Part shown: positions 6,913 through 62,952 of the stretch, piece after piece | How positions within the stretch are numbered: the first letter of the stretch is position 1 | How the letters are laid out: each line of letters begins with the position of its first letter | DNA from: Clostridia bacterium | GTDB lineage: Bacteria > Bacillota > Clostridia > Oscillospirales > Acutalibacteraceae | DNA length: 64,000 nucleotides | Reading direction: 5' to 3' | Assembly (NCBI GenBank): GCA_017468425.1 | Contig: JAFUIO010000020.1 | Coordinates: 93,185 to 157,184 of the forward strand | Program-made: the position numbers and the translations under genes | Notes under the pieces: generated by a model | Seen by the model: only the letters and a program-made list of their open reading frames with translations | The model's database searches: none | What the model was told of the DNA's origin: nothing

Positions 6913-7737
6913 ATGAAGTGTGGAAGAATATATCTTTACGAAGACAGGCAAGATGTTTATCTTGATACATATGTAAGAGATACTTCACGTGAATATCCTA
7001 CAAATGTACGTCCCGGAATACTTGTTTTACCGGGTGGCGGATATGGGATGTGTTCTGACCGTGAGGCAGAGCCTATAGCTAACCAGTATCTTGCTGCAGG
7101 TTTAAGTTGCTTTGTTCTTCGTTATTCTGTTGGCGAAAACGCATCAAGAAAAATGCCTGAATTCAGCCAACCCTTACTTGATGCTTCTCTTGCAATGTCT
7201 ATTATCAGAAAAAACGCTGATGAATGGAATGTAGACTCAGATAAAATCGCTGTTATCGGCTTCTCTGCAGGTGGTCATCTGGCCGGAAGTCTTGCAACTA
7301 TGTGGAAGGATGAAGCAATCTGGAATGAACTTGATATTCCTGCAGAAAGTAATAAGCCGAATGCTGCAATTCTTGCTTATCCTGTTATAACGTTCGGTAA
7401 GCGTACTCACGGCGACACGAGAGATAATCTTCTCGGCAAATACTGTGATGATGAAGTTTTAGTTAAAAAATATTCACTTGAAAATAATGTAACTGCAGAT
7501 ACTCCGCCTACATTTATTATGCACACTGCAGAAGATGGTTCTGTTCCTGTTGTTAACTCGCTCAGCTTTGCAACAGCACTTTCAACAAATAATATTCCTT
7601 TCGAACTTCACGTGTTCCCGTTCGGCGGTCATGGAATGTCTACAGGCACTAAAGAAGTGTGCCATGAAGAGAATAAATATGCCGCAAGATGGGTGAAGCT
7701 TTCTGTAAAATGGTTAAAAAATACTTTTGATATGTAA
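6913..7737 (+). CDS. Alpha/beta-hydrolase esterase (acetyl-esterase/lipase-like)
   Basis: Oxyanion-hole LPGGGY and nucleophile elbow GFSAGGH. C-terminal FGGHG. Confidence 0.7.
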   Translation: MKCGRIYLYEDRQDVYLDTYVRDTSREYPTNVRPGILVLPGGGYGMCSDREAEPIANQYLAAGLSCFVLRYSVGENASRKMPEFSQPLLDASLAMSIIRKNADEWNVDSDKIAVIGFSAGGHLAGSLATMWKDEAIWNELDIPAESNKPNAAILAYPVITFGKRTHGDTRDNLLGKYCDDEVLVKKYSLENNVTADTPPTFIMHTAEDGSVPVVNSLSFATALSTNNIPFELHVFPFGGHGMSTGTKEVCHEENKYAARWVKLSVKWLKNTFDM

Positions 7738-7745
7738 TTATAAGA

Positions 7746-7777
7746 CCACTGATTTGTTTCCGAATCGGTGGTTTTTT
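7746..7777 (+). terminator. Rho-independent terminator after the esterase gene
   Basis: CCACTGATT / AATCGGTGG stem (one G-U pair) followed by TTTTTT. Confidence 0.7.
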
Positions 7778-7903
7778 CAGCTTTGTATAAAAAATAAAGT
7801 TTTTTTGATAAATTTTAATAAAAAAACATTGAAATTTTACTTAAATTGGTATATTATTATATGGGTATTTGTTTACCTAATTGAATCCTCTCGGAGGCAT
7901 GTT

Positions 7904-10900: not shown

Positions 10901-12562
10901 AACTCAGCTTCATATGGTGGTGCAATTTCAATTGCAAGTAACGGTAAAGTAATGCTTTATGATGGTTCTGTTTACAGCAATACTGCCACTGTCAGTGGTA
11001 ATGCTGTTTATACTGAAGGTACACTGAACTTCTATTCAGGTGGCTTTATTGATGCAACAAACGATGTTTTCCTGCCGACAGGTGAAACAATTACAATGAT
11101 GGCGAAATCAGTTTATTCGTCTCCTATAGTCACGATTACACCTGAAACATATTATGATGGTGCACAGATACTTAATGGCGATTTCACAGCTATGAACTCA
11201 AATCTTTGCACAATAACACCGGAAGCTGAAACTGAGTGGCATATCAATTCAGGTGGTAGGCTTACTTCAAGTGAGATAAAATATGTTCTTAAAGCAAGTT
11301 TCTTCCAGTCTGATGATGTTCCCTATACATCTATTGAAGAAGCAATGGCTGACATAGGAGAAAATCCCGCTATTATTGAACTTCTTGACGATATTACATT
11401 AAAAGAAACTCTTTTGATTAAGAGTGATATCACTATTCAGTCAGACGGTATTGCACACACAATTTCTGCTCCTGCCGGCTTTGAAGGTCCGATGTTTAAA
11501 GTAGTTAATGGTGCAGTTCTTTCTCTCGGAAGTATCGGCGATGATTATGATTCAGACGTTCTTTATGTGAATGGTTCAAATGTAACAGCGGATACAATTA
11601 TTGATGTTCAGGACGGTATTCTCAAAGTTTATTCCGGTACTGTAATATTTGGTGCCAATAAAATAGACAGTGCGATTAAATCTGTTGATGCTATTGAAAT
11701 GTACGGCGGTAAAATTACCGAAAACGCAGTAAACGTTGGTGCTGTTCACGTAGCAGATGGTTCATTTAATTTCTTTGCAGGTACAATCTTTGATAATACA
11801 GATGTTGGCGTTTATTCGAACGGAATATTCAATATTTATGACGGAGCCGGTGTTGATGAATCAAATATTGTTTATCTGACTGACGGAAAGGTTATCAATG
11901 TTCAGGAGCCTGACCCTGTTTATGATGAAGATGGTAATGAAATCGAACAGGAATATGTTATTCCTGATAAGATTGCTACCATTGATTACGAAAAATACTA
12001 TGTTGATACTCCTGTAATCTCTACCAAAGATGATATAAGCAAATATTCAGGTAAATTCAATGTGGTTGATCCGACATATTATGTTGATGAAAATAGTGTT
12101 CTTCGTGCTGATTACCATGAACTCAAAGACAATGCGACTATAAAACTTAGTGATGATTATACATATAATCTCTCAATTAATTCTTATACTGTCAAGAGTC
12201 TTTGCCTCCAGTATAAAAATACAAATATTGCTGTTGTTAACAAGAATTCTGTTGTTAAGACAGAGGATGAAAAGGTTGGTACGGGAGATAGAGTTGTATT
12301 GCTCGATTCAAGCGGTACTGTATACAGAGAGTTGTCTGTTGTAATTTACGGTGACGCAGATGGCGATGGTGACGTTAATGCCAACGACTCATTTGTTACA
12401 AAAATGTATGTTTACGGTTGGTTTAAAGACGATCAGTTTACAGCCGCACAACTTGAGGCGATGGATGTAAACCACGACGGAGTTGTTGATGAAATCGATG
12501 CTCTCATTATGGAAGATGTAGGTATTGGTACAGGCGTAATTGTACAGACACGTGTGTTTTAG
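7904..12562 (+). CDS. Large secreted protein: two tandem GLUG-repeat modules, Pmp-like (GGAIY) beta-helix repeats, C-terminal type-I dockerin
   Basis: GGAGG RBS then ATG 7904. Signal peptide MKSVKFKKIIVCILALIMAMSTTSVVSLAA. Many VGGI(A/V)G repeats and GGAIY/GGVIY/GGVLF repeats. The ORF-track start at 7727 would run through the terminator and an AT-rich promoter region. Confidence 0.8.
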   Translation: MKSVKFKKIIVCILALIMAMSTTSVVSLAADIWSGGISQVIPAQTNDGFYLIQTAEDLAWFASQVNGDAGNATMKARLVNDIYLNDVENLENPKSWTPIGNYSENGRVFSGIIDGKGFTIYGLVIDNTKNYQGLCGYLENGQVKNLNLVSTYVYAEKFVGAVCGYANNMSSITQVVVTDGHIVGGEDVGGIAGYLKGSGNISFCGFAGDINARGVRVGGIVGCSFDESTISQSYNLGTVYSSTKFVGGIAGTNSASKIISCYNRGKVSGDFRVGGIVGNNVGDIASCYNASEVESISDPPGLTGAIAAYYYMSNITECYYDAELFTGKEDNGLPMASDEMKRHGFIAVLNSSAGNFYFDYLLKNNGYPIMSWQADQNLWDGSVKEPKKSTDGNYYLINNGRELAWFAGLVNGTLEGVPQNTAANAMLLNSIVLNVGNLGEDSNIWTPIGSEFSEYTGEFSGNGFSIRGMYIPEGDVVGLFGATSATAEITDLTITESVINGGNAVAPVVGVNFGTIRGIKVIYSTVNGVENVGGIVGENGNFGQITESSSIYSDITGENNVGGIVGYALIDSVIETCCSYNDVAGQQAVGGVVGETEANISRSFNAGSVVADDTYAGGVAGRISGGAIVSNCYNTGSVSAASRAGGIAGQLRQQSTIDCTYSIGNVLGIDGSTDNINAILGNLVNGTITNSYFDKERYAVTDSYATGLRTKQMTGSGAMSNLSGFSHEYWVPTADTEFFVNYPQLDTFNSSADYDLYDISVESVQYLKEGLVCKVIGVNETSYYKTLAEAAAKIGAGSGIVEVMADLTVGSEVVIEGNVTIIPSGENIKVTRVKHYFGQVFTVKDGGVLNFGADDDTYATLTIDGNNVTDITNSNFASSLVTVEDGGTFNCYDINTYNNTALNGGFVYNQGTTNFYGGTITDGTAIQAGGVIYNKGDMNIYAVEMSNNSAKLAGGVLFSAGGVVNVETGADIHNNTSGEGGAIYAGGGTVNVRGGSIYLNSASYGGAISIASNGKVMLYDGSVYSNTATVSGNAVYTEGTLNFYSGGFIDATNDVFLPTGETITMMAKSVYSSPIVTITPETYYDGAQILNGDFTAMNSNLCTITPEAETEWHINSGGRLTSSEIKYVLKASFFQSDDVPYTSIEEAMADIGENPAIIELLDDITLKETLLIKSDITIQSDGIAHTISAPAGFEGPMFKVVNGAVLSLGSIGDDYDSDVLYVNGSNVTADTIIDVQDGILKVYSGTVIFGANKIDSAIKSVDAIEMYGGKITENAVNVGAVHVADGSFNFFAGTIFDNTDVGVYSNGIFNIYDGAGVDESNIVYLTDGKVINVQEPDPVYDEDGNEIEQEYVIPDKIATIDYEKYYVDTPVISTKDDISKYSGKFNVVDPTYYVDENSVLRADYHELKDNATIKLSDDYTYNLSINSYTVKSLCLQYKNTNIAVVNKNSVVKTEDEKVGTGDRVVLLDSSGTVYRELSVVIYGDADGDGDVNANDSFVTKMYVYGWFKDDQFTAAQLEAMDVNHDGVVDEIDALIMEDVGIGTGVIVQTRVF
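12350..12520 (+). other. Type-I dockerin module (two Ca-binding loop-helix repeats)
   Basis: GDADGDGDVNANDSFVTKMY ... MDVNHDGVVDEIDALIMEDV. Confidence 0.8.
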
Positions 12563-13459: not shown

Positions 13460-15826
13460 ATGTATCGCGTACAGAAAAGAGACGGCAAAATTGTAGATTT
13501 TGACATTATCAAAATCGCTAATGCGATTAAACAGGCATTTGAATCATGCGAAAAAGAGTATAACGACAGTGTAATTGATTTCCTTGCTCTCAAGGTTACT
13601 GCAGACTTTGAACCCAAAATCAAAGATTCACTTATTACAGTTGAAAACATCCAGGACAGTGTTGAATCTGTTCTTGTTCAGGCAGGCTATGCAGATGTTT
13701 CAAAATCATATATTCTTTACAGAAAACAGCGTGAAAAACTTCGTAATATCAAAGGCACACTCCTTGACTATAAAGATCTCGTTGATAACTATGTTAATGT
13801 TAATGACTGGCGTGTTAAGGAAAACTCAACCGTTACATATTCTGTAGGCGGTCTTATCCTTTCAAACTCAGGTGCTATTACTGCTAACTACTGGCTTTCA
13901 GAAATTTACGACAAAGAAATTGCTGATGCACACAGAAACGCAGATATCCACCTTCATGACCTTTCTATGCTTACAGGTTACTGTGCAGGTTGGTCACTCA
14001 AACAGCTTATTAAAGAAGGTCTCGGCGGTGTAACAGGTAAAATTACATCTGCACCCGCAAAACACCTTGCAACACTCTGCAATCAGATGGTTAACTTCCT
14101 CGGCATTATGCAGAACGAATGGGCAGGTGCACAGGCTTTCTCGTCATTCGATACTTATCTTGCTCCCTTTGTAAAGGCTGACAACTTGTCATACGAGCAG
14201 GTTAAAAAATGCATTGAATCATTTATTTACGGTGTAAATACTCCTTCACGTTGGGGTACTCAGGCTCCGTTCTCAAACATCACTCTTGACTGGACTGTTC
14301 CCAATGACCTTGCAGAACTCAATGCAATCGTTGGCGGTAAAGAACAGGACTTCAAGTATAAAGATTGTAAAAAAGAAATGGATATGGTTAACCGTGCATT
14401 CATTGAAATTATGATTGAAGGCGATGCTCACGGCAGAGGTTTCCAGTATCCCATTCCCACATACTCAATCACAAGTGATTTTGACTGGTCAGAAACAGAG
14501 AACAATAAACTTCTCTTCGAAATGACATCAAAATACGGCACACCTTACTTCTCAAACTATATCAACAGTGATATGGAACCCAGTGACGTAAGAAGTATGT
14601 GCTGCAGACTCCGTCTTGACCTCAGAGAACTCCGTAAAAAATCAGGCGGTTTCTTCGGCAGTGGTGAAAGCACAGGTTCAATCGGCGTTGTTACAATCAA
14701 TATGCCCAGAATCGCTTACCTTGCAAAAGATGAAGCAGATTTCTACAAACGTCTTGACAGAATGATGGATATTTCTGCTCGTTCACTTCATATCAAGAGA
14801 ACTGTTATCACAAAACTTCTCAATGAAGGTCTCTATCCCTACACAAAACGTTACCTCGGTACATTTGAAAACCACTTCTCAACAATCGGTCTTGTTGGTA
14901 TGAACGAAGTTGGTCTCAATGCTAACTGGCTCGGTAAAGATATGACTCACGAAGAAACACAGATTTTCTCACAGCAGGTTCTTGACCATATGAGAGAAAA
15001 ACTTTCAGACTATCAGGAAATGTACGGTGACCTTTACAACCTTGAAGCAACACCTGCAGAGTCAACATCTTACAGACTTGCTAAACACGACCTTAAGAGA
15101 TATCCCGATATTAAAACTGCTTCAGAAAAATGTGACGAAACACCTTACTATACAAACAGTTCACATCTTCCTGTTGGTTACACAGAAGACATCTTTGAAG
15201 CTCTTGATATTCAGGATGAACTTCAGACAAGATACACATCAGGTACTGTTTTCCACGCATATATCGGTGAAAAAATGCCTGACTGGAAATCTGCTGCAAA
15301 CCTTGTTCGCAAAATTGCAGAAAACTACAAACTGCCTTATTATTCAATTTCTCCCACATACTCAGTATGTAAGAGCCACGGATATATCGCAGGCGAACAC
15401 TTCACTTGCCCCGAATGCGGTGAATCAGCAGAAGTTTACAGCCGTATCACAGGTTACTATCGTCCCGTTCAGAACTGGAATGACGGTAAACTCCAGGAAT
15501 ACAAACACCGTAAGCTTTACGATGTAATGAATTCAAAAATTTCTGAAAAAGCTGAAGTTTGTGAATGTGAAACTGCAGAAGTTGCAGAAACAAACATTTC
15601 AAACAGAACAATCCTTTTCACAACAGCAACTTGCCCCAACTGCCAGGCAGCAGTATCTTTCCTCAACAAAGCAAATGTTGAATTTGAGAAAGTAATTGCA
15701 GAAGAAAATGCCGACCTTGCAAAAGAACTCGGTATCAAACAGGCTCCCACATTAGTAGTTGTTGATGAAAACGGTGTGGCAAAATATCAGGGCGTTTCTG
15801 ATATTAAAAAGTTTATTAAAGCATAA
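13460..15826 (+). CDS. nrdD: Anaerobic (class III) ribonucleoside-triphosphate reductase with a fused C-terminal glutaredoxin-like domain
   Basis: N-terminal ATP-cone (VQKRDGKIVDFD). Finger-loop SMCCRL. Zn site CKSHG...CPECG. Glycyl-radical motif RITGYYRP (G665, 15452-15454). GGAGG RBS. Confidence 0.9.
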   Translation: MYRVQKRDGKIVDFDIIKIANAIKQAFESCEKEYNDSVIDFLALKVTADFEPKIKDSLITVENIQDSVESVLVQAGYADVSKSYILYRKQREKLRNIKGTLLDYKDLVDNYVNVNDWRVKENSTVTYSVGGLILSNSGAITANYWLSEIYDKEIADAHRNADIHLHDLSMLTGYCAGWSLKQLIKEGLGGVTGKITSAPAKHLATLCNQMVNFLGIMQNEWAGAQAFSSFDTYLAPFVKADNLSYEQVKKCIESFIYGVNTPSRWGTQAPFSNITLDWTVPNDLAELNAIVGGKEQDFKYKDCKKEMDMVNRAFIEIMIEGDAHGRGFQYPIPTYSITSDFDWSETENNKLLFEMTSKYGTPYFSNYINSDMEPSDVRSMCCRLRLDLRELRKKSGGFFGSGESTGSIGVVTINMPRIAYLAKDEADFYKRLDRMMDISARSLHIKRTVITKLLNEGLYPYTKRYLGTFENHFSTIGLVGMNEVGLNANWLGKDMTHEETQIFSQQVLDHMREKLSDYQEMYGDLYNLEATPAESTSYRLAKHDLKRYPDIKTASEKCDETPYYTNSSHLPVGYTEDIFEALDIQDELQTRYTSGTVFHAYIGEKMPDWKSAANLVRKIAENYKLPYYSISPTYSVCKSHGYIAGEHFTCPECGESAEVYSRITGYYRPVQNWNDGKLQEYKHRKLYDVMNSKISEKAEVCECETAEVAETNISNRTILFTTATCPNCQAAVSFLNKANVEFEKVIAEENADLAKELGIKQAPTLVVVDENGVAKYQGVSDIKKFIKA
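15605..15823 (+). other. Glutaredoxin/NrdH-like thioredoxin-fold domain at the NrdD C-terminus
   Basis: RTILFTTATCPNCQAAVSFLNKANVEFEKV...APTLVVVDENG. CPNC is encoded at 15632-15643. Confidence 0.75.
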
Positions 15827-17988: not shown

Positions 17989-19287
17989 ATGAACTTTGTT
18001 TTAAAAAATGCAAAAGTCTATCGTAAAGGCAAGTTCATAAAAGGCGATATTCTTGTAAAAGACGGTCGCCTCAGTCATCTTTTCGGTTTTTCATCCGTAC
18101 CTTGTGATGCTATCGTTTATAACGCTGAAAATTGTATTATTATTCCGGGTCTTGTTGATGTACACGTGCATCTCAGGGAGCCCGGTTTTTCTTTTAAAGA
18201 AACGATAAAATCCGGAACGATGGCTGCAGCACGCGGTGGTTATACACACGTATGTTCAATGCCTAACCTGAATCCTGTGCCTGACACAATGAAGAATCTT
18301 AAACAGCAGCTTGATGTTATCAAAACCGATGCTGTTATCAAGGTTACACCTTACGGTTCAATCACAGTCGGTCAGATGGGCGATGAACTTTCAGATATGG
18401 ATGATATGAAAGATTATGTTGCAGGTTTTTCTGATGACGGTAAAGGTGTTCAGGAAGCTGAAATGATGATTATGGCAATGGAAGAAGCAAAGGCCTGCGG
18501 TAAAATGATTGTGGCTCACTGCGAGGATAACTCACTTCTTCACGGCGGTTACATTCACGATGGTGAATATGCACGTCTTCACGGTCACAGAGGTATCTGC
18601 TCTGAAAGTGAATATCTTCCCATTAAACGCGATATTCCGCTTGCTAAACGTACAGGCTGCGGTTATCATGTATGCCATATTTCTGCAAAAGAAAGCGTTG
18701 AAGCTATCAGACAAGCCAAAAAAGACGGCGTGGATATTTCTTGTGAAACTGCTCCTCATTACCTTGTTCTCAATGATATGGATTTACAGGAAAACGGCAG
18801 ATTCAAAATGAATCCGCCTATAAGAAGTGAAGAAGACAGATTAGCTCTTATTGAGGGTATAAAAGACGGCACCATTGAAATGATTGCAACTGACCATGCA
18901 CCTCACTCAGCAGAAGAAAAGAGCAGGGGTCTTGAAAAAAGCTTAATGGGTGTTGTAGGGCTTGAAACTGCATTCCCTGTTCTCTGGACAGAGCTTGTTA
19001 TGAAAAATATAATCACAGCAGAACACCTTGTGAAAATAATGAGCATCAATCCTGCAAAACGCTTCGGCTTCGAAAGCGGACTTGATAACGGAAAAATTGC
19101 AGATTTTGCTGTGTTTGATGTCAGTGAAGAATACGAAATAAATCCTGAAGAATTCCTTTCAATGGGCAGAGCAACTCCTTTTGAAGGAAGAAAGGTTTAC
19201 GGCAAATGTCTTATGACAGTTTGCGGCGGTGAAATAGCGTACAGCAATATCGAAAGGCGGAAAGAAAATGCTACAGACAGTATTTGA
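17989..19287 (+). CDS. pyrC: Dihydroorotase
   Basis: VDVHVHLREPG metal motif and ATDHAPH. Operon context. Confidence 0.9.
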   Translation: MNFVLKNAKVYRKGKFIKGDILVKDGRLSHLFGFSSVPCDAIVYNAENCIIIPGLVDVHVHLREPGFSFKETIKSGTMAAARGGYTHVCSMPNLNPVPDTMKNLKQQLDVIKTDAVIKVTPYGSITVGQMGDELSDMDDMKDYVAGFSDDGKGVQEAEMMIMAMEEAKACGKMIVAHCEDNSLLHGGYIHDGEYARLHGHRGICSESEYLPIKRDIPLAKRTGCGYHVCHISAKESVEAIRQAKKDGVDISCETAPHYLVLNDMDLQENGRFKMNPPIRSEEDRLALIEGIKDGTIEMIATDHAPHSAEEKSRGLEKSLMGVVGLETAFPVLWTELVMKNIITAEHLVKIMSINPAKRFGFESGLDNGKIADFAVFDVSEEYEINPEEFLSMGRATPFEGRKVYGKCLMTVCGGEIAYSNIERRKENATDSI

Positions 19288-19999
19288 AATAAAAGCAAAT
19301 GAAAAAATCGCAAAAGATGTTTACAAAATGGTACTTATCGGTGATACATCTGACCTGAAAAAGCCCGGTCAGTTCGTAAACATCAAGCTTGACGGATTCT
19401 TTTTAAGAAGACCGATTTCTGTATGCGATTACGACGAAAACGTACTTACACTCATTTACAAAGTTGTTGGTGCAGGCACAGAAGTTATGAGTAAAATGTG
19501 TGAAGGTGAAAAGCTTGACATTCTCACAGGTCTCGGCAACGGCTTTGACACTTCAGAAAGCGGTAATAATCCCGTTGTTATCGGTGGCGGTGTAGGCGTT
19601 CCTCCTATGTTCAACCTCGCAAGAAAGTTAATTGAAGAAGGCAAAAAGGTAACTGCTGTTCTCGGCTTTAACAAAGAAGAAGAAATTTTCTACAAAGATG
19701 AATTTGAAAAATTAGGTGCAGAAGTTTACATTACAACTGTTGACGGTTCAGTAGGAACAAAAGGTTTTGTTACTGACGCAATGAAAAATATTGATTTCTC
19801 TTACACCTATTGTTGCGGCCCTGAGCCGATGCTCAAAGCAGTTTACAATGCTTCAGACAAAGATGGTCAGTTCAGTTTTGAAGAAAGAATGGGTTGCGGT
19901 TTCGGTGCTTGTATGGGTTGCAGCTGCAAAACAAAATACGGCAATAAACGAATCTGCAAAGAAGGACCCGTACTCTGCAAGGAGGAAATAATATGGTAA
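19268..19999 (+). CDS. pyrK: Dihydroorotate dehydrogenase (class 1B) electron-transfer subunit
   Basis: FNR-like fold. C-terminal 2Fe-2S motif CGFGACMGCSC...C. Confidence 0.85.
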   Translation: MLQTVFEIKANEKIAKDVYKMVLIGDTSDLKKPGQFVNIKLDGFFLRRPISVCDYDENVLTLIYKVVGAGTEVMSKMCEGEKLDILTGLGNGFDTSESGNNPVVIGGGVGVPPMFNLARKLIEEGKKVTAVLGFNKEEEIFYKDEFEKLGAEVYITTVDGSVGTKGFVTDAMKNIDFSYTYCCGPEPMLKAVYNASDKDGQFSFEERMGCGFGACMGCSCKTKYGNKRICKEGPVLCKEEIIW

Positions 20000-20904
20000 A
20001 CACAAAAGTTAATTTATCAGGCGTTGAGCTTGATAATCCGATAATCCCTGCAAGCGGTACATTCGGTTTCGGTTACGAATTTGCAGAGCTTTATGATATA
20101 AATGTTCTCGGTTCACTTTCTTTCAAAGGTACAACCCTTGAACCTCGTTTCGGTAATCCTACTCCCAGAATTGCAGAAACAGAAAACGGTATGATTAACT
20201 CTGTAGGACTTCAGAATCCCGGTGTTGAAAAGGTAATTTCAGAAGAACTTCCGAAATTGCGTGCTTGTTTCAATAAGCCGATTATGGCAAATATCAGCGG
20301 TTTCTCAATCGATGAATACAGAGCATGCTGTGAAAAAATCGATAAAGAAGACCAGGTTGAATTCATTGAAGTCAATGTCAGTTGTCCCAATGTTCACAAC
20401 GGCGGAATGAGTTTCGGTACTTCTCCCGAAAGTGCAGCAGCGGTAACAAAAGCTGTAAAAGAAGTTACAACAAAGCCTGTGTTTATTAAACTCAGCCCTA
20501 ATGTGACAGACATTGTGTCAATTGCTAAAGCTTGCGAGGAAGCTGGTGCAGACGGTATCAGCCTTATAAACACGCTTCTTGGCATGAAGATAGATTTAAA
20601 AACAAGAAAACCTGTTATTGCAAATAAGATGGGCGGTTTTTCGGGTAACGCAATTTTCCCCGTAGCTGTAAGAATGGTGTATCAGGTTTATGAAGCTGTA
20701 AATATTCCGATCATCGGAATGGGCGGTGTATCAAAAGCAGAAGATGTTATTGAACTTATGCTTGCAGGTGCAACTGCAGTCCAGGTTGGTGCTGCAAACC
20801 TTACAGAGCCTTTTGCTTGTAAGAACATAATTGAAGATTTACCCCGCGTTATGGCTAAATACGGTATTAATAATTTAAAAGATATAATAGGAGGCGCACA
20901 CTAA
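19993..20904 (+). CDS. pyrD: Dihydroorotate dehydrogenase (class 1B) catalytic subunit
   Basis: [18 protein letters not shown]...GA motifs. GGAGG RBS. Confidence 0.9.
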
Positions 20905-21602
20905 TGGGAAAAGATGTAATTATCGCGTGTGATTTTGACGGTAAGGAGGAAGTGCTTAAATTTCTTGATAAGTTCACTGGAAGAAAACCTTTCGTGAAAA
21001 TCGGTATGGAGCTGTATTATTCAGCAGGTCCTGAAATCGTAAAAGAAATCAAAGCAAGAGGACATAAAATTTTCCTCGACCTTAAACTTCATGACATTCC
21101 GAACACAGTTAAAAAATCAATGGCAGTTTTATCAAAATTGGATGTTGATATGTGCAACCTCCATGCAGCCGGTACAGTTGCTATGATGGAAGCAGCAATT
21201 GAAGGTCTTACACGTCCTGACGGCACAAGACCCCTTCTTATAGCTGTTACTCAGCTTACTTCAACAAGCGAAGAAAGAATGAAAGAAGATTTGCTTATCG
21301 AAAAACCTATCGATGAAGTTATTATGCACTACGCATCACGTGCGAAAGTTGCAGGTCTTGACGGTGTTGTTTGCTCACCCCTTGAAGCAAGCAAGGTTAA
21401 AGATGTTTGCGGTAAAGAATTCCTTACAGTAACACCCGGCGTTCGTTTTGCAGACGGTGATGTAGGTGATCAGGTGAGAATTGCAACTCCTGCAAGAGCA
21501 AAAGAAATCGGTTCTGACTATATCGTAGTAGGCAGACCTATTACTCAGGCAGAAGATCCCGTTGCAGCATATGAAAGATGCGTAAACGAATTTGTTGATT
21601 AA
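20904..21602 (+). CDS. pyrF: Orotidine-5'-phosphate decarboxylase
   Basis: [10 protein letters not shown] and [10 protein letters not shown] motifs. Confidence 0.9.
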
Positions 21603-21629
21603 TAGTTTTATATAAAGGAGAAAGAAATT

Positions 21630-22259
21630 ATGGAAAAACTTATTGCACAGGATTTGCTCTCAATCAGAGCTGTATTTTTCAGACCGGACGAGCCTTTCAC
21701 ATGGGCAAGCGGAATCAAAAGCCCTGTTTATTGCGATAACAGACTTACTCTCACAGCTCCCAAAGTGAGAAATGATGTTGAAAACGCACTTGCAGAAACA
21801 ATCAAAAAAGAATATCCCGAATGTGAAGTTCTTATGGGAACAAGCACAGCAGGTATTGCTCATGCAGCTATCACAGCTCACATTCTTGACCTTCCTATGG
21901 GTTATGTCCGTTCAGGTTCAAAAGACCACGGCAGACAGAACCAGATTGAAGGCAAGCTTGAAAAAGGTCAGAAAGTAGTTGTTGTTGAAGACCTTATTTC
22001 AACAGGCGGCAGTGTTATCGAAGTTGTAAATGTTCTTCGTGAAGCAGGCGCAGAAGTTCTCGGTATCGTAAGCATCTTCACATACGGTATGCAGAAAGGT
22101 CTTGACAGACTTGCTGCTGCAGAAGTTAAAAATGTATCACTTACTAATTTTGACGTTATTGCTAATGTTGCAGCTGAAACAGGCTACATCAAAGCAGAAG
22201 ATGTTGAAAGACTTATTAAATTCAGAAATAATCCTTCAGACGAAAGCTGGATCGGGTGA
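21630..22259 (+). CDS. pyrE: Orotate phosphoribosyltransferase
   Basis: PRPP-binding [13 protein letters not shown]. Confidence 0.9.
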
Positions 22260-22264
22260 ATTAT

Positions 22265-23179
22265 ATGAGAAGTCTTATTGATATTAAAGACCTGTCCATC
22301 GAAGAAATCGATGAACTTATTGTAAAGGCAAACGATATCATAGAAAATCCGAAAAAATATGCACACGCTTGTGATGGTCTCAAACTTGCAACACTTTTCT
22401 TTGAGCCTTCAACAAGAACAAGACTCAGCTTTGAAGCTGCAATGTATGAGCTTGGCGGTAATGTTTTAGGTTTTTCTGAAGCACAGTCAAGTTCAGCTGC
22501 AAAAGGCGAAAGTGTATCTGACACAGTAAAAACAGTAAGCTGTTATGCTGATATTATCGCTATGCGTCATCCTAAAGAGGGTGCACCCTTAGTTGCTTCA
22601 AGAAAAGCATCTGTACCGATTATCAATGCAGGTGATGGCGGTCATAACCATCCTACACAGACTCTTACTGACTTGCTTACAATTCACCGCGAAAAAGGCA
22701 GATTTGATAATCTTACAATTGGTTTCTGCGGTGACCTTAAATTCGGCAGAACAGTTCATTCACTTATCGAAGCGATTTCAAGATATAAGAACATAAAAGT
22801 TGTGCTTATTTCACCGGTTGAACTTAAACTTCCCAGTTACATCAAACACGATGTATTGAGAGCACATAATATCGAATACGTTCAGACAACAAATCTTGAA
22901 GAAGTTATGCCAACACTTGATATTCTTTATATGACACGTGTTCAGCGCGAAAGATTCTTCAATGAAGATGATTACGTAAGACTTAAAGACAGTTATATTC
23001 TTACACCTGAAAAACTTGTGAATGCAAAAGAAGATTTATGCATTATGCATCCGCTGCCGAGAGTTAACGAGATTTCGACTGAAATCGATAACGACAGCAG
23101 AGCTTGCTATTTCAAACAGGTTCTTAACGGTAAATTTATAAGAATGGCTCTTATTCTTAAACTTCTGGGGGTGGAATAA
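22265..23179 (+). CDS. pyrB: Aspartate carbamoyltransferase catalytic subunit
   Basis: STRTR, HPTQ and HPLPR motifs. ATG 22265 preferred over GTG 22256. Confidence 0.9.
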
Positions 23180-23677: not shown

Positions 23678-23696
23678 ATTTTTAAGTGAAAATTTA

Positions 23697-23775
23697 TGTG
23701 TTTCTGCAACTGACGGATAAGGTGATTAAACACCGGGGAGCAGAAAAACACAATTTTGTCGACCGTCTGGGCAGT
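23697..23775 (+). promoter_or_regulatory. ZTP riboswitch (pfl motif) aptamer
   Basis: P1 is TGTGTTTCTGC / GCAGAAAAACACA. P2 is GGTG / CACC followed by GGGGAGC. A linker leads to GACCGTCTGGGCA. The pseudoknot GACGG (23712-23716) / CCGTC (23763-23767) covaries relative to the consensus. Confidence 0.85.
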
Positions 23776-23814
23776 TCTGTTTCATTTTTGTGGGAGAGAA
23801 CTGCCTTTATTTTT
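23770..23814 (+). terminator. Riboswitch expression-platform terminator
   Basis: GGCAGTTCT / AGAACTGCC stem then TTTATTTTT. The 5' arm overlaps the aptamer's 3' GGGCA element. Confidence 0.8.
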
Positions 23815-56933: not shown

Positions 56934-56961
56934 TTGACTTTTTGCTGATTTATGGTATAAT
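56934..56961 (+). promoter_or_regulatory. Promoter of the carAB leader
   Basis: TTGACT, 16-nt spacer, TATAAT. Confidence 0.6.
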
Positions 56962-57111: not shown

Positions 57112-57185
57112 TTGTTTATATAACAATAGCCAATATGTTATTTGTTAAGTATTGGCTGATTTTTTAAAATCGGCCATTTATTATA
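57104..57185 (+). promoter_or_regulatory. Three mutually exclusive leader hairpins ending in a terminator-like structure upstream of carA
   Basis: H1 is GGCTA..TTGTT / AACAATAGCC (57104-57131). H2 is GCCAATA / TATTGGC (57129-57156). H3 is TGGCTGATTTT / AAAATCGGCCA (57153-57176), followed by TTTATTATATTT. Confidence 0.45.
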
Positions 57186-57224: not shown

Positions 57225-58295
57225 ATGAAAAAGGTTTACATCGTCCTCGAAGACGGGCACATCTTTGAAGGCAAGGCATTCGGTGCAGAGGGAGAAACTC
57301 TGGGCGAACTTGTTTTCACAACAAGCGTGGTTGGTTATGTTGCAACACTTACAGACCCCCGCTACTACGGCCAGATAATTTTACAGACATTTCCGCTTAT
57401 CGGAAATTATGGCTATATCAGTGAACAACGTGAAAGTGATAAAGTATGGGCAAAGGCTTTCATTGCGAGAGAATGGTGTGAAAACCCATCAAACTTCAGA
57501 TGCGAAAAAACACTTGATGAATATCTTAAAGAACAGGGTGTTATCGGTGTTTATGATGTGGATACACGCGAAATCACTCAGCTTATCCGCGAAAATGGTG
57601 TGATGAATGCTAAAATTGTATCCAGCCTTGATGATATTGATTATGATGAAATCAAGAACTATAAAATTGAAAATGCCGTTGCTGCTGTTTCTGATGGAGA
57701 AACAAAAGTTTACGGTCAGGATAATGATGGTGCAGCAGTTACTGTTGTTAATTTCGGTTATGATAAAAATGCTGTCAAAGATTTGTTGAATCTCGGCATG
57801 AAAGTAACTTCAGTTTCCGCATCTTCAACTGCTGAAGAAATTCTCGCAACCAATCCTCAGGGAGTTGTTCTTTCTGATGGCCCCGGTAATCCTGCTGAAA
57901 ATGAATCAGCAATCGCTGAAGTTTCAAAACTTGTAGGCAAACTTCCGATTTTCGGACTTGGTCTCGGTCATCTTGTTCTTGCTCTTGCAAACGGTGCTGA
58001 AACTTCAAAACTTAAGTTCGGTCATCGTGGTTCTAACCAGCCTGTCAAGAGTCTTAAAACAGGTAAAACATATATCACAAGCCAGAACAGCGGTTATACC
58101 GTAAACGCTGAAAGTCTTGAAAAATGTGGCGGTGAAGTTGCGTTTATCAATGTTAATGACGGCACTTGTGAAGGTGTTGATTATAAAGATAAAAATGCAT
58201 TCTCTGTTCAATACCATCCTGAAGCTGGTTTACGCGACAGAGATGTGGATAAAATATTTGATCGTTTTGCAGCAATGTTGGGAGGTAATGACTGA
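57225..58295 (+). CDS. carA: Carbamoyl-phosphate synthase small (glutaminase) subunit
   Basis: Catalytic triad context GLGLGHL (the expected GICLGHQ Cys position should be checked) and YHPEA. ATG 57225 preferred. Confidence 0.85.
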   Translation: MKKVYIVLEDGHIFEGKAFGAEGETLGELVFTTSVVGYVATLTDPRYYGQIILQTFPLIGNYGYISEQRESDKVWAKAFIAREWCENPSNFRCEKTLDEYLKEQGVIGVYDVDTREITQLIRENGVMNAKIVSSLDDIDYDEIKNYKIENAVAAVSDGETKVYGQDNDGAAVTVVNFGYDKNAVKDLLNLGMKVTSVSASSTAEEILATNPQGVVLSDGPGNPAENESAIAEVSKLVGKLPIFGLGLGHLVLALANGAETSKLKFGHRGSNQPVKSLKTGKTYITSQNSGYTVNAESLEKCGGEVAFINVNDGTCEGVDYKDKNAFSVQYHPEAGLRDRDVDKIFDRFAAMLGGND

Positions 58296-61200
58296 TGCCG
58301 CTTAAAGAAAATATTAAAAAAGTACTCGTTATCGGTTCAGGCCCTATCGTTATCGGACAAGCTGCTGAATTCGACTATGCAGGTGCACAGGCTTGCCGTG
58401 TACTTAAAGATGCAGGTCTTGATGTTGTTCTTGTAAACTCAAACCCTGCTACAATTATGACAGATAAGGCTCTTGCTGATGAAATTTATCTTGAGCCGCT
58501 TAATGCTGAAACAATCAAGAGAATCATTGAAAAAGAACGCCCCGACAGTATTCTTGCAGGTCTCGGCGGACAGACAGGTCTTACTATTGCTATGCAGCTT
58601 AATAAAGAGGGTTATCTCGATAAAATGGGTGTTAAACTCATCGGTACAAATGCTGAAGCAATTGACAAAGCTGAAGACCGTCAGCTTTTCCGTGATACAA
58701 TGGTTAAAATCGGTCAGCCCTGTATTCCTTCTGATATTACTACAAATATGGAAGGTGCAAGAAAAATTGCAGCTGAAATCGGTTATCCCGTAATTATCCG
58801 TCCTGCTTTCACACTTGGTGGTGCAGGTGGCGGTGTTTGTAACAATCCTGAAGAACTTGAGGTTATTGCAAACACAGGTCTTATGATGTCTCCTATTTCA
58901 CAGATTCTCGTTGAAAAATACATCTATGGCTGGAAAGAAATAGAATTTGAAACAATGCGTGACAGCGCAGGTAACTGCATAGCTGTTTGTAGTATGGAAA
59001 ACGTTGACCCTGTCGGCGTTCATACAGGTGACAGTATTGTTGTTGCTCCTGCAGTAACTCTTTCAAGCAAAGAATATAATATGCTTCGTAATGCATCACT
59101 TGATATTATTACTGAACTTGGTATTGAGGGTGGTTGTAACTGTCAGTTTGCTCTTAACCCTGAATCATTTGAATATGCAGTTATTGAGGTTAACCCCAGA
59201 GTTTCACGTTCATCTGCTCTTGCAAGTAAAGCAACAGGTTATCCAATTGCAAAGGTTACAACAAAAATTGCTCTCGGTTATACACTCGATGAAATCCAGA
59301 ACGATATCACAAAGAAAACATGTGCTTGTTTTGAGCCTACTGTTGACTACCTTGTTGTTAAATTCCCCAAATGGCCTTTTGATAAATTTGTAAATTCAAG
59401 CAGAACTCTCGGCACACAGATGAAAGCAACCGGCGAAGTTATGTCAATCGGTACTTCATTTGAAATGGCCATTATGAAAGCTGTACGCGGTGCTGAAATT
59501 TCTATGGATACGCTTAACACAAAGCGTCTCGATGATGTTACTGATATTGAAGCTAAGCTTCACGATATGGACGATATGAGAATGTTCACTATCTTTAAAG
59601 CACTTAAAAACGGCTTCAGTATTGATAAAATTCACGAAATTACCAGAATCGATGAGTGGTTCCTTTATAAACTTAAAAATCTTGCTGATTATGAGCTTAT
59701 GCTTGAAAGCGGCGAGCTCACCGATGATTACTATGAAAAAGGTAAGAAACTCGGTTATACAGATGCTGCTATTGAACGTATTTCAGGTGTAAACATAATG
59801 GAAAGTAAGAAAGCAGTTTACAAAATGGTTGACACTTGTGCTGCTGAATTCAAGGCTGAAACACCTTATTTCTACTCAACATTTGATAATCATTGCGAAA
59901 GCCGTGCATTCAAGAGAAGCGGCAAAGATGTAATTATGGTTCTCGGTTCAGGTCCTATCAGAATCGGTCAGGGTATTGAGTTTGACTATTCATCAGTTCA
60001 CTGTGTATGGTCACTTAAAGAACTCGGCTACGAAGTTGTTATTATCAATAATAACCCCGAAACCGTTTCAACTGACTTTGATACTGCTGACAGACTTTAT
60101 TTTGAACCTCTCACCGAAGAAGACGTTATGAACGTTATTGAGGTTGAAAAACCCATTGGCGTTGTTGTTGCATTCGGTGGTCAGACAGCTATTAAGCTTA
60201 CAAAATTCCTTGATGAGCAGGGTATTAAGATTCTCGGTACATCTGCTGAAGGTATTGATATTGCTGAAGACAGAGAAAAATTTGATGCGCTTCTTGAAAA
60301 ATTCGGCATCAGACGTCCTCAGGGCAGAACAATTATGAACACTGATGATGCTCTTAAAGCTGCTGAAGAACTTGAATATCCTGTTCTTCTCAGACCTTCA
60401 TATGTTATCGGCGGTCAGAATATGCAGATTTGCTATAATCCTGATGATATCAGACAGTATATGCAGATTATCCTTGAACAGAAAATCGAAAATCCTGTTC
60501 TTGTTGATAAATATATGATGGGTGCTGAACTTGAAGTTGACGTTATCTCTGACGGCAAAGATGTTCTTATTCCCGGTGTTATGCAGCATATTGAACGTGC
60601 AGGTGTTCACAGCGGTGACTCTATTGCAGTTTATCCGCCTTTCAACCTTAACGATAAAATGCTTGAAACACTTATCGACTGTTCAGAAAAACTTACACTT
60701 GAACTCGGCACAAAGGGTCTTGTTAACATTCAGTATCTTATTTACAGAAATGAACTTTATGTTATCGAAGTTAACCCCAGAGCTTCAAGAACAATTCCTT
60801 ATATCAGTAAAGTAACAGGCGTTCCAATGGTTGAACTCGCAACTAAGATTATGGTTGGCGAATCTCTTAAATCATTGGGTTACGGAACAGGCCTTTACAA
60901 AACTCCGCCTTATTTCGCTGTTAAAGCACCTGTGTTCTCATTTGAAAAGCTTTCAGATGTTAACTCATCACTTGGTCCTGAAATGAAATCAACAGGTGAA
61001 GTTCTCGGTCTTGGTGAAAACCTTGAAGAAGCACTTTATAAAGCACTTACAAGTGCCGGCTTCAGACTTCACGACTATAGCAAGAAGAGCGGTGGTGTTC
61101 TCCTTTCTGTAAGTGATAATGATAAGCCTGAGGTTCAGGAACTTGCAAGAAAATTCAATGATTTTGGTGTTAAGATTTATGCTACAAAATCAACTGCAGA

Positions 61201-62332
61201 ACTTATTGAACAGCTTGGTATCAAAGTTCACGTTGTGAAGAAACTTCACGATGATGAAAACGATGAAGTTATGCAGCTTCTTGAGGACGGTAAACTCGAC
61301 TATATTGTTTACACAGGTGTAGGTAAGAAAAATACAATTGCCGACTATATCCGTATCAACCGCAGAGCAGTTCAGCTTGCTATTACATGTATCACATCAA
61401 TGGATACTGCAAATGCACTTGTTGATACTATTGCAAGCCGTTATAATCTTTATAATACAGAGCTTGTTGATATCAACAATATGCGTCTTGAAAAAGAACC
61501 TCTTGATTTCTATAAGATGCAGGGTTGCGGTAATGACTTTATTATTCTCAATAACTTCAAGAATGACATTTCTTGTCCTGAATCTCTTACAATAAGTCTT
61601 GTAGACAGAAACTACGGTATCGGCGCTAACGGTCTTGTGCTTGTAGAAGGTTCTTCAAAAGCAGATGCCAAAATGCGTGTGTTCGGTTCAAACGGTAAAG
61701 AATCAGACCTTTATGGTAACTGCATACACTGTGTTGCTAAATATCTCTATGACAGAGGTATGATTAAGAAGTCTTCATTCACAATTGAAACTTCACAGGA
61801 TGTAAGAAAAGTCAAAGTTCACAGAATTAATGATGAAGTTCGTTCTGTAACTGTTAATATGGGTCTTCCTGATTGGTCACCTGAATCAGTTCCTGCAGTA
61901 AGAGATAGTGAAATTAAAGATTATGCTATTTCTTGTGCAGGCAGAGACCTTAAAATCAACTGTTTCTCACTTAACAGCCCTCACTGCGTTGTTTTCTGTG
62001 ATAATGTTGATGTTTTTGACCTTGCAAAAGTCGGCTATGCTCTTGAAAACCATGAGATGTTCCCCAAGGGAATAAATACCGAACTTGTTCAGTTTGTAAA
62101 TAAACGTGAACTCAAACTTCGCGTTTGGAAATCTGACTACGGTCTCACGCTTTCAAGTGGTACAGGTGCTTGCGCTGCAGTTGCAGCAGCAGTTGCTAAT
62201 GGTCTTTGCGGTAAAAACGAAGATATAACCGTTAAAACAAAGGGTGGCGAACTTATTGTTAACTACACTGATGACGGAATTCTTCTTTCAGGTAACGTTT
62301 CTATGATTTTCAACGGTACAATTAACTATTAA
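58295..62332 (+). CDS. carB: Carbamoyl-phosphate synthase large subunit fused in frame to a C-terminal DapF-like (diaminopimelate-epimerase fold) domain
   Basis: 1345 aa. Two ATP-grasp halves (VIGSGPIVIGQAAEFDYAG and VLGSGPIRIGQGIEFDYS) and an MGS-like domain, followed by FYKMQGCGNDF...SPHCVVF...SGTGACAAVA. Confidence 0.9.
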   Translation: MPLKENIKKVLVIGSGPIVIGQAAEFDYAGAQACRVLKDAGLDVVLVNSNPATIMTDKALADEIYLEPLNAETIKRIIEKERPDSILAGLGGQTGLTIAMQLNKEGYLDKMGVKLIGTNAEAIDKAEDRQLFRDTMVKIGQPCIPSDITTNMEGARKIAAEIGYPVIIRPAFTLGGAGGGVCNNPEELEVIANTGLMMSPISQILVEKYIYGWKEIEFETMRDSAGNCIAVCSMENVDPVGVHTGDSIVVAPAVTLSSKEYNMLRNASLDIITELGIEGGCNCQFALNPESFEYAVIEVNPRVSRSSALASKATGYPIAKVTTKIALGYTLDEIQNDITKKTCACFEPTVDYLVVKFPKWPFDKFVNSSRTLGTQMKATGEVMSIGTSFEMAIMKAVRGAEISMDTLNTKRLDDVTDIEAKLHDMDDMRMFTIFKALKNGFSIDKIHEITRIDEWFLYKLKNLADYELMLESGELTDDYYEKGKKLGYTDAAIERISGVNIMESKKAVYKMVDTCAAEFKAETPYFYSTFDNHCESRAFKRSGKDVIMVLGSGPIRIGQGIEFDYSSVHCVWSLKELGYEVVIINNNPETVSTDFDTADRLYFEPLTEEDVMNVIEVEKPIGVVVAFGGQTAIKLTKFLDEQGIKILGTSAEGIDIAEDREKFDALLEKFGIRRPQGRTIMNTDDALKAAEELEYPVLLRPSYVIGGQNMQICYNPDDIRQYMQIILEQKIENPVLVDKYMMGAELEVDVISDGKDVLIPGVMQHIERAGVHSGDSIAVYPPFNLNDKMLETLIDCSEKLTLELGTKGLVNIQYLIYRNELYVIEVNPRASRTIPYISKVTGVPMVELATKIMVGESLKSLGYGTGLYKTPPYFAVKAPVFSFEKLSDVNSSLGPEMKSTGEVLGLGENLEEALYKALTSAGFRLHDYSKKSGGVLLSVSDNDKPEVQELARKFNDFGVKIYATKSTAELIEQLGIKVHVVKKLHDDENDEVMQLLEDGKLDYIVYTGVGKKNTIADYIRINRRAVQLAITCITSMDTANALVDTIASRYNLYNTELVDINNMRLEKEPLDFYKMQGCGNDFIILNNFKNDISCPESLTISLVDRNYGIGANGLVLVEGSSKADAKMRVFGSNGKESDLYGNCIHCVAKYLYDRGMIKKSSFTIETSQDVRKVKVHRINDEVRSVTVNMGLPDWSPESVPAVRDSEIKDYAISCAGRDLKINCFSLNSPHCVVFCDNVDVFDLAKVGYALENHEMFPKGINTELVQFVNKRELKLRVWKSDYGLTLSSGTGACAAVAAAVANGLCGKNEDITVKTKGGELIVNYTDDGILLSGNVSMIFNGTINY
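61502..62329 (+). other. DapF-like domain with both catalytic Cys positions substituted (Tyr1140, Ser1288)
   Basis: By-eye alignment to E. coli and B. subtilis DapF. NCGNGLRCVAKY aligns with LYGNCIHCVAKY (TAT 61712-61714). QACGTGACAA aligns with LSSGTGACAA (AGT 62156-62158). Confidence 0.7.
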
Positions 62333-62352: not shown

Positions 62353-62904
62353 ATGCATGATAATGTGATTTTCAGAAGTGCAGCATTCGGCTTTGATAAG
62401 AGAGAAGTAATGGAGTACATTTCTTCGATTTGTGAAGTTAATGCTGAAAATATCAGACGCCTTAACGGGGCTAATGCTGAAATCGCAAAATGCAGACAGG
62501 AAAGCGAAAACTTCCGTAATGAAAACGCTGAACTTGTGGCAAAAAATAAAGCTCTTGAAGAAGAAATTGCTGAAAATCAAAAACTGATTGAATCTCTCAA
62601 TGAGAAAATTACTGAATTAACAGAAAAAGCTGAAAAGGTTAATGAAATTGAGGGTGCTGAAGAAAAAGCCAATCAGTTGATGATGGATTCTTTGCGTTAT
62701 TCTGAATCCTGCATTAAAAATGCACAGAGAGTTTCTGAATCTCTCAATATTTCAACAAAAAATAAAATTGATAAAGCAAAGAGCTGTCTTAACACTGTTT
62801 CAAGTGATTTTAAGAGCCTTACAGGACAGCTGGAGCAGTCAATTTCTGAAATTTCACAGCGTCTTGCTGAGTTGTCGAAAGGTCTTGATGATTCAGGTAA
62901 ATAA
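62353..62904 (+). CDS. DivIVA-domain coiled-coil protein
   Basis: N-terminal FRSAAFGFDKREVMEYI (compare F..GYD..EVD.FL), then heptad-rich E/K/L sequence. ATG 62353 after GGAGTG. Confidence 0.6.
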   Translation: MHDNVIFRSAAFGFDKREVMEYISSICEVNAENIRRLNGANAEIAKCRQESENFRNENAELVAKNKALEEEIAENQKLIESLNEKITELTEKAEKVNEIEGAEEKANQLMMDSLRYSESCIKNAQRVSESLNISTKNKIDKAKSCLNTVSSDFKSLTGQLEQSISEISQRLAELSKGLDDSGK

Positions 62905-62920
62905 TTAATAGTCAGTGATA

Positions 62921-62952
62921 AAGCCGATAACTCAAAAGTTATCGGCTTTTTT
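62921..62952 (+). terminator. Rho-independent terminator
   Basis: AAGCCGATAAC / GTTATCGGCTT stem followed by TTTT. Confidence 0.8.

Follow-up and report, generated by a model that had tools for sequence, protein, structure and literature searches.

What becomes of an enzyme domain carried on another enzyme once both of its catalytic residues have been replaced? This question is raised by the carB gene, encoding the large subunit of carbamoyl-phosphate synthase (CPSase), in a stretch of 64,000 nucleotides from a gut Clostridia bacterium (assembly GCA_017468425.1, contig JAFUIO010000020.1), hereafter referred to as the window, which denotes the whole stretch of DNA that was analyzed. The gene occupies 58295..62332 (+) as one open frame of 1345 codons, with neither a stop nor a frameshift at the junction between CarB and a C-terminal domain resembling DapF, the diaminopimelate (DAP) epimerase. 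The encoded protein is an extreme form of a CarB-DapF fusion that is widespread in database entries yet apparently undescribed. The explanation favored here, with a probability of roughly 0.6, is that a once-bifunctional CarB-DapF protein has lost its epimerase activity and that the domain has been kept by selection as a structural/oligomerization or regulatory appendage of CPSase.

Domain organization and reality of the fused protein

The organization of the 1345-amino-acid (aa) protein is evident from profile searches, in which Pfam recognizes CPSase_L_D1, CPSase_L_D2 and CPSase_L_D3, an MGS domain (aa 948-1034) and DAP_epimerase (PF01678, 4.9e-43; 146.5 bits against a threshold of 34.7). 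The NCBIfam CarB equivalog NF003671 spans aa 1-1049 with 1468 bits (cut-off 599) and TIGR01369, also a CarB family, reaches 1424 bits (cut-off 1027). Additionally, the DapF equivalog TIGR00652 spans aa 1071-1343, matching profile positions 2-268 of 270 with 221 bits against a cut-off of 114.65. A preliminary description of this DNA, made from the sequence alone, had proposed a complete DapF fold on a CarB of 1345 codons, and this is borne out by the two equivalog matches in an uninterrupted frame. Between the two parts lies a conserved CarB tail and linker, whose motif NTELVDIN..R is kept across fused CarB-DapF proteins.

An AlphaFold model of aa 931-1345 has a pLDDT of 88.9, with an inter-domain tail of about 20 residues at low values (pLDDT 52-69). 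In Foldseek comparisons, the C-terminal part matches DapF structures with TMt 0.88-0.90 and a root-mean-square deviation (rmsd) of 2.3-2.6 A (2otn_A, TMt 0.88, rmsd 2.3 A) and the O-ureidoserine racemase DcsC (7vdy_B) with TMt 0.92. The matches also include the RppH-DapF complex 6d13, the DapF mutant 2q9j, PhzF and 3-hydroxyproline dehydratase. In this model, the two-lobed DapF fold is intact. The MGS domain aligns with residues 915-1045 of Escherichia coli CarB, with the positions of K954, T974, T977, K993 and T1042 kept and with N1015, T1017 and Y1040 replaced by Tyr, Gly and Cys, respectively. These positions are presumably residues of the nucleotide-effector (UMP/IMP) and ornithine sites, which, by this alignment, may be partly altered in the CarB-DapF family.

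There is a negligible chance that these observations are an artefact, such as an overlooked stop or frameshift, a chimera created in assembly, or separate translation of the DapF part from ATG 61481 or 61517. The same protein (NCBI MBQ7957381.1, from a 'Clostridia bacterium' metagenome-assembled genome, MAG) is encoded by identical DNA on contigs of two independent assemblies from different metagenome samples, and hundreds of proteins have the fused length in common; a sequencing or assembly error is ruled out by these two facts. No support for an artefact was found. Some relatives are broken up by gene callers, though at no sites other than N-gaps in scaffolds. One such case, P0014 (272 aa, 103 contigs), was at first a candidate for a standalone DapF with Ala at the first catalytic position and was rejected, as N-gaps split what is a 1337-aa fused open reading frame (ORF). 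Separate translation, which the preliminary description had left open, was rejected as well: neither internal ATG is preceded by a Shine-Dalgarno sequence, unlike the start of carB itself, which has a strong ribosome-binding site, GGGAGG, 8 nt before its ATG, and the DapF domain is therefore part of CarB and not a separate gene. A separately translated product would, moreover, still lack both cysteines. The 90% cluster of MBQ7957381.1 contains 45 members, and of the 15 that are listed, 14 share the length of 1345 aa and the remaining one has 1333 aa; the named members come from Ruminococcaceae/Oscillospiraceae MAGs. Across 16 distinct 1345-aa variants of this lineage, 0 of the 21 linker positions (aa 1050-1070) vary.

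Loss of the catalytic cysteines and remodeling of the DAP pocket

Active-site positions were read from phmmer alignments to the solved DapFs 2otn, 9mro, 2q9j and 3ejx, and their coordinates are collected in Table 1. The first catalytic cysteine, Cys73, is replaced by Tyr1140 and the second, Cys217, by Ser1288, both of which are invariant in the 16 lineage variants. These two replacements had been named in the preliminary description together with the changes of ERG to KSD and of GNPH to NSPH; all of its motifs and coordinates are correct, and the profile search with residue-level alignment places no Cys at either catalytic position. With both cysteines replaced in a genuine DapF fold, the domain, judged from these residues, is incapable of two-base Cys/Cys epimerase action, as had been claimed.

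The substrate pocket is altered as well. The residues serving as DAP ligands in DapF are N11, N64, N157, N190, E208 and R209 (PMC8225329). Four of them are replaced in the window (N64G, N157S, E208K and R209S), and N11, within the GNDF motif, and N190 are kept, as is the SGTGACA helix motif. All 84 other aligned sequences have Asn at the N64 position. In this 85-sequence alignment, the window departs at 24 of 92 near-invariant DapF columns, mostly in four active-site loops, and 18 of the 24 departing positions are invariant within the window lineage. Position 1280, equivalent to R209, varies between Ser and Ala in that lineage.

The preliminary description had also offered altered chemistry, in which Tyr, Ser and Lys, or the nearby Cys1143, would act on a new substrate. 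The fold family does include one-base enzymes (PhzF and 3-hydroxyproline dehydratase, both among the Foldseek matches), replacement of a single Cys turns relatives of proline racemase into dehydratases, the domain is under strong selection, and a Cys is present at +3 (GNC). However, both general acid/base residues and four substrate ligands, including those of the distal site, have been lost together, no pathway partner genes lie near the locus, and many independent lineages (L027, L038, L053-L060, P0079, P0109) erode different active-site residues, which indicates relaxed catalytic constraint and not a newly fixed mechanism. An enzyme with new chemistry is thus without positive support and improbable. 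A shift of the catalytic Cys itself to the +3 position was considered and rejected, as this position is C, S, A or N among relatives.

Distribution of the fusion and decay of its epimerase domain

The CarB-DapF architecture, described at first as unfamiliar, is not peculiar to the window. In a whole-protein search, the best 120 CarB homologues, from Eubacterium sp., Ruminococcaceae and Clostridia MAGs, are all 1338-1350 aa long and all carry PF01678, and they are annotated only as 'carbamoyl-phosphate synthase large subunit'. In GTDB, a pattern scan of genomes from species other than that of the window (whose TSMDTANALV does not fit the pattern) yielded at least 583 relatives, and fused genes occupy about 60 of the best 80 loci; the GTDB residue and neighborhood counts given below come from the best loci among these at least 583. 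Among the fused loci are those of the cultured bacteria Ruminococcus sp. FC2018 and Neglectibacter caecimuris, of a closed chromosome from a Christensenellaceae MAG and of Acutalibacter, with a few from Treponema and Selenomonadaceae bins. CarB-DapF is common in public genomes of Oscillospirales/Christensenellales-type Clostridia, and the window shares the layout in full, namely an ORF of about 1340-1360 aa with CarB, the tail TANAL...NTELxDIN and the DapF fold. The impression of novelty holds for the literature, in which the searches made found no published description of a bacterial CarB-DapF fusion or of a DapF pseudoenzyme.

Several observations concern the edges of this distribution. Fusions of the Ala/Cys type occur in bins outside Clostridia, namely the Treponema MAGs L031, L036 and L062 and the Selenomonadaceae bin L019, which could be due to horizontal transfer or binning contamination. 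Two Clostridia MAGs (L069, L071) have fused Cys/Cys domains that are 32-33% identical to the window over the MGS plus DapF-like query and 49% over CarB, and their DapF part groups with standalone DapFs of Bathyarchaeota MAGs in a neighbor-joining (NJ) tree; this fusion may be independent in origin. Additionally, P0280, P0341 and P0363 (687-692 aa), P0295 (1046 aa) and L077 (471 aa) have a C-terminal DapF behind unrelated N-terminal regions, and DapF therefore joins further fusion architectures.

Within the family, the catalytic residues form a graded series. Ala stands at the Cys73 position, with Cys217 kept, in 117 of the 120 closest full-length homologues, and 115 of those 117 also keep N64, GN(PH), N190 and ERG. 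By their residues at Cys73/Cys217, the fused GTDB loci comprise 21 Cys/Cys, 29 Ala/Cys, 5 Gly/Cys, 2 Ser/Cys and 5 others, compared with Cys/Cys in 19 of 19 standalone DapFs (Fisher p = 2e-7). Further erosion is observed in several separate lineages (L027, L038, L053/55/57/60, P0079, P0109), and only in the window and its close relatives P0121 and P0122 was the Tyr/Ser pair found in combination with G64, NS and K(S/A)D. In the NJ tree, which is unsupported, Cys/Cys fusions stand next to standalone DapFs and the window lies on a long branch inside the Cys73-less group. As read from these residues, the window lineage is the most decayed state of the CarB-DapF fusion. Since there are relatives whose fused domain, encoded beside dapL, has both cysteines and every DAP ligand, the window would represent the end of a decay series and not a one-off. 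The same relatives bear on the proposal of a pseudo-epimerase recruited as a CPSase module: its retention as a module agrees with the selection described below, but the idea that it was already dead when recruited does not agree with fused intact domains beside dapL, and the domain probably did not start out on CarB as a pseudoenzyme.

The speed of change in the domain might be taken to indicate a functionless relic that drifts neutrally after the loss of epimerase activity. Relative to P0121, the window is 90% identical in the DapF domain and 97% in CarB, and it is about 50% identical in this domain to the Ala/Cys relatives, compared with 63-71% between pairs of these relatives that are equally distant in CarB. 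Such a relic is nevertheless very improbable. The ratio of nonsynonymous to synonymous substitution rates (dN/dS) was determined between the window and two diverged relatives, L003 (96% aa identity) and L004 (94%), giving 0.047-0.054 for the DapF-like domain at a dS of about 1 or more and 0.016-0.032 for the CarB part, the latter reflecting purifying selection consistent with an active enzyme. The DapF-like domain is under strong purifying selection, and a ratio of about 0.05 with saturated dS contradicts drift; likewise, no stops, frameshifts or truncations occur in the 16 lineage variants or the 120 closest homologues, and the fold is predicted with high confidence.

Gene neighborhood and separate dapF copies

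The catalytic state of the fused domain is associated with its neighborhood. Among Cys/Cys fusions, 16 lie beside dapL and/or pyrG and 0 after argD-argF-carA, with neither detected for 3; for non-Cys/Cys fusions, the corresponding counts are 1, 22 and 13 (Fisher p = 4.5e-10 for the dapL/pyrG versus arg columns). The dapL/pyrG clusters often start with glnA-ANTAR-carA, which is the same neighborhood as that of standalone dapF, and the full argC-J-B-D-F-carA-carB arrangement is found at L091. The window fits neither subtype, as it has the Tyr/Ser pair without dapL/pyrG neighbors and has lost Cys217 and ligands without flanking arg genes.

Two loci, L045 (Neglectibacter) and L038 (an Acutalibacter MAG), each carry a fused and a standalone DapF. 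Both copies look intact (Cys/Cys) at L045, whereas the fused copy at L038 is decayed (C73S, N64L, E208K, C217G) and the adjacent standalone dapF is canonical. The fused domains of L038 and L045 have a dN/dS of 0.16, close to the 0.15 of the standalone pair. L038 provides the clearest evidence that, where a further dapF is present, the domain on CarB can become non-catalytic and yet be retained.

The gene order at L038 (2078-7703) and L045 (3196-9920) is fused DapF, a conserved ORF of about 156 aa (MKLLFKQR.FSWFDSYDIYDEAGN...), standalone dapF, pyrG and dapL. Another arrangement is found in several Clostridia at L073 (4859-6828) and L092-L101 (e.g., L092, 3935-5837), where a carA-like gene, a standalone Cys/Cys dapF, pyrG, a gene for a DapL-type aminotransferase and glnA occur in this order, with the stop of the carA-like gene overlapping the start of dapF, no carB between them, and glutamate synthase genes and ANTAR regulators on the flanks. 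These clusters may descend from a carA-carB::dapF operon that has since shed carB, or they may reflect a nitrogen-regulon arrangement. L091 and L092 share a GC content of 44%, which is only suggestive as a link between genomes.

Function of the domain on CPSase

According to the favored explanation, CarB-DapF would be an old fusion, widespread in gut and rumen Clostridia, whose DapF was originally catalytically intact and whose gene lay beside dapL/pyrG; the intact Cys/Cys domain and this neighborhood are the reason for reading the ancestral protein as a presumably bifunctional CPSase/DAP epimerase. In a large sub-group, mostly those in which carAB closes an arginine operon, the first Cys would have been replaced by Ala, Gly or Ser and epimerase activity lost, and the window lineage would have gone on to lose both cysteines and the residues gripping the far end of DAP. 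The domain would now serve CPSase without catalysis, most likely as a structural or oligomerization appendage, forming a DapF-type two-fold dimer beside the allosteric domain on which CPSase has come to depend, and DAP epimerization would be provided by a separate dapF or bypassed. Given the strong purifying selection, a pseudo-epimerase kept as a CPSase module is a reasonable reading.

The dimer in this proposal is modeled on DapF itself, which forms a tight two-fold dimer that is disrupted by R36A/Y268A (PMC6061855) and is documented to act apart from its catalysis as a binding partner of RppH, in the complex 6d13 (PMC6061855, PMC4227774). In the window, the equivalent of the interface residue R36 is retained as Arg1105, and the aromatic character of the hot-spot Tyr268 is retained as Phe1339. 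In E. coli CPSase, one of the tetramer interfaces is built from the allosteric domains, and a C-terminal dimerizing domain would sit there.

Several points weigh against this explanation. The order of events rests on the unsupported NJ tree, and the Tyr codon TAT can be reached from a Cys codon in one step, whereas from Ala two or more are needed; the window lineage may thus have lost Cys73 independently of its Ala-type relatives. The role of the domain for CPSase is one that we infer, and the oligomerization idea, drawn by analogy, is built on two retained residues and on the quaternary structure of E. coli CPSase. A second canonical dapF, which would supply the lost activity, was not found by tblastn in the 64-kb window, which contains no ddh either, and attempts to place a standalone dapF in the same genome as a fusion of the Ala/Cys or Tyr/Ser type (P0021, P0042, P0133, P0123) gave no match. 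Furthermore, the remodeled pocket residues are conserved in the lineage (18 of 24 invariant), which would also fit a new ligand.

This last point leads to the main alternative, a rather unlikely one, namely a retooled allosteric sensor in which the remodeled closed-clamshell pocket, with its Tyr, Lys, Asp, Ser and His, would bind some metabolite other than DAP and tune CPSase by relaying its closure to the neighboring allosteric domain. The substitutions are concentrated in the ligand loops and nearly invariant in the lineage (Tyr1140, His1145, Asn-Ser1227/8, Lys1279, Asp1281 and Leu1284 are all kept), and the domain lies directly behind the MGS-like effector domain. In addition, E208K arose independently in L038, and the Ala/Cys relatives keep every DAP ligand, which suggests that ligand binding mattered after catalysis was lost. 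However, the ligand cannot be named, the R209-equivalent position varies between Ser and Ala, and the bulky central Tyr may simply plug the site. The conservation test is also of low power, with 1 of 17 signature positions variable compared with an expectation of about 3.5 (an estimate, p about 0.1). A broader form of this idea, which is slightly more doubtful, combines a clamshell on CarB rebuilt as a new small-molecule sensor with a family-level resolution of the bifunctional gene by complementary decay, whereby arg-operon copies would keep CarB with a dead DapF and the carA-dapF-pyrG-dapL clusters would keep DapF and have lost carB. If true, the sensor would be a kind of regulatory input that no characterized CPSase is known to have.

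Comparison with known systems

Compared with the DapFs of Bacillus anthracis (2otn), Haemophilus influenzae (1bwz/2gke) and E. coli (4ijz), the window domain has the full two-lobed fold, a full-length TIGR00652 match and the equivalents of R36 and Y268, but it is attached to CarB instead of being free-standing and has neither catalytic Cys nor N64, N157, E208 and R209. The C73S and C217S mutants of H. influenzae DapF (2q9h, 2q9j) resemble it in having Ser at the Cys217 position, and 2q9j is among its best sequence and fold matches; these are, however, laboratory single mutants with the DAP pocket kept, in contrast to a natural change of both bases and of the distal pocket.

The closest parallels in architecture are database entries. 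The intact Cys/Cys fusions of Ruminococcus sp. FC2018 (L029), N. caecimuris (L045) and the Christensenellaceae MAG (L044) share with the window the domain arrangement, a length of about 1348-1360 aa and the junction motif SxDTANAL...NTELxDIN, and differ in keeping all catalytic and DAP-binding residues and in adjoining dapL/pyrG, being presumably bifunctional. The arg-operon fusions with Ala, Gly or Ser at Cys73 (P0123-P0240, L009 and others) are the closest CarB relatives (70-72% identical overall); like the window, they have lost Cys73, and an AGNC subgroup shares its odd +3 Cys. They retain Cys217 and all DAP ligands and mostly follow argF-carA, unlike the window, where the pocket is remodeled and arg neighbors are absent.

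CPSase is a textbook allosteric enzyme. The E. coli CarB (1jdb, 1bxr, 1a9x) has all four CarB regions, several of the same nucleotide-site residues and, as in the window, carA directly upstream, but it ends about 25 residues past the MGS core, and the window protein runs on for a further 275 residues. Yeast Ura2, a CPSase fusion of the CAD type, carries an inactive dihydroorotase-like domain kept as a structural module that links CPSase to aspartate transcarbamoylase. It thus resembles the window protein as a CPSase polypeptide with a dead copy of another metabolic enzyme, although its fold (amidohydrolase), pathway partner and kingdom differ. In the E. coli DapF-RppH complex (6d13; PMC4227774, PMC6061855), DapF acts on another enzyme by contact while remaining a DapF-DapF dimer, but there DapF is free and catalytically active and its partner is an RNA pyrophosphohydrolase, with no fusion of the kind found in the window.

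The carAB locus and its surroundings

The partner gene carA lies directly upstream of carB, and its stop codon overlaps the carB ATG, so that the two are translationally coupled. Upstream of carA, a promoter-like site (Table 1) is a consensus match only, as such sites are no more numerous in the carA region than in shuffled sequences. The hairpin located 3' of it in the carA leader is a possible attenuator, judged by its sequence, and the leader has no match to PyrR or any other Rfam family, even at E <= 1. Downstream of carB, a coiled-coil gene is probably on the same transcript as carAB. Neither arg genes nor dapL/pyrG adjoin carAB in the window, and what is probably the pyr operon, a dihydroorotase-like gene with five ORFs behind it in the same direction, is found apart from carAB at 17989-23179 (+); carAB is therefore in neither a pyr nor an arg operon.

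Table 1. Features of the carAB locus and of the fused CarB-DapF protein (window positions; residue equivalents follow DapF numbering)
Feature	Coordinates	Strand	Basis or remark
Promoter-like site upstream of carA	56934..56961	+	TTGACT-16-TATAAT with TG extension; consensus match 11/12
Terminator-like hairpin with T-run, carA leader	57153-57176	+	
carA, CPSase small subunit, 356 aa as called	57225..58295	+	PF00988 and GATase; alternative ORF start 57210
carB proper, CPSase large subunit, aa 1-1049	58295..61441	+	NF003671, TIGR01369, Pfam domains
MGS-like allosteric domain, aa 948-1034	61136..61396	+	PF02142, 7e-16
Conserved CarB tail and linker, aa 1050-1070 (YNLYNTELVDINNMRLEKEPL)	61442..61504	+	Conserved across fused proteins
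DapF-fold putative pseudo-epimerase domain, aa 1071-1345 and stop codon	61505..62332	+	Family matches, residue-level alignment, AlphaFold model
Arg1105, dimer-interface R36 equivalent	61607..61609	+	Alignment to DapFs
Gly1131, at DAP ligand Asn64	61685..61687	+	FNxDG aligns with FGSNG
Tyr1140 (TAT), at catalytic Cys73	61712..61714	+	sCGNg aligns with LYGNC
Asn1227-Ser1228, at Gly156-Asn157	61973..61978	+	GNPH aligns with NSPH
Lys1279-Ser1280-Asp1281, at Glu208-Arg209-Gly210	62129..62137	+	ERG aligns with KSD
Ser1288 (AGT), at catalytic Cys217	62156..62158	+	aCGTG aligns with SSGTG
Phe1339, at dimer hot-spot Tyr268	62309..62311	+	Alignment to DapFs
Coiled-coil gene downstream of carB	62354..62904	+	DivIVA-like, faint
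Terminator-like hairpin after the coiled-coil gene	62920-62949		

Elsewhere in the window, a ZMP/ZTP riboswitch (RF01750, 59.6 bits, 23696-23779, +) precedes a run of plus-strand ORFs from 24351 to about 37400, which includes a 1229-aa ORF and is presumed to be a purine biosynthesis operon. An anaerobic ribonucleotide reductase, NrdD, with an N-terminal ATP-cone and a fused C-terminal glutaredoxin domain (aa 718-767), is encoded at 13460-15826 (+), and a 1611-aa ORF is located at 7727-12562 (+).

Significance

The CarB-DapF proteins present, in one protein context, a natural series from an intact epimerase domain through the loss of one Cys to the loss of both Cys and the ligand pocket, and the gene neighborhood tracks the state of the domain. 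Automated DapF annotation could wrongly credit genomes with a DAP epimerase in reconstructions of lysine and peptidoglycan metabolism. The family is a tractable model for studying how a fused enzyme becomes a pseudoenzyme and what retains the dead domain.

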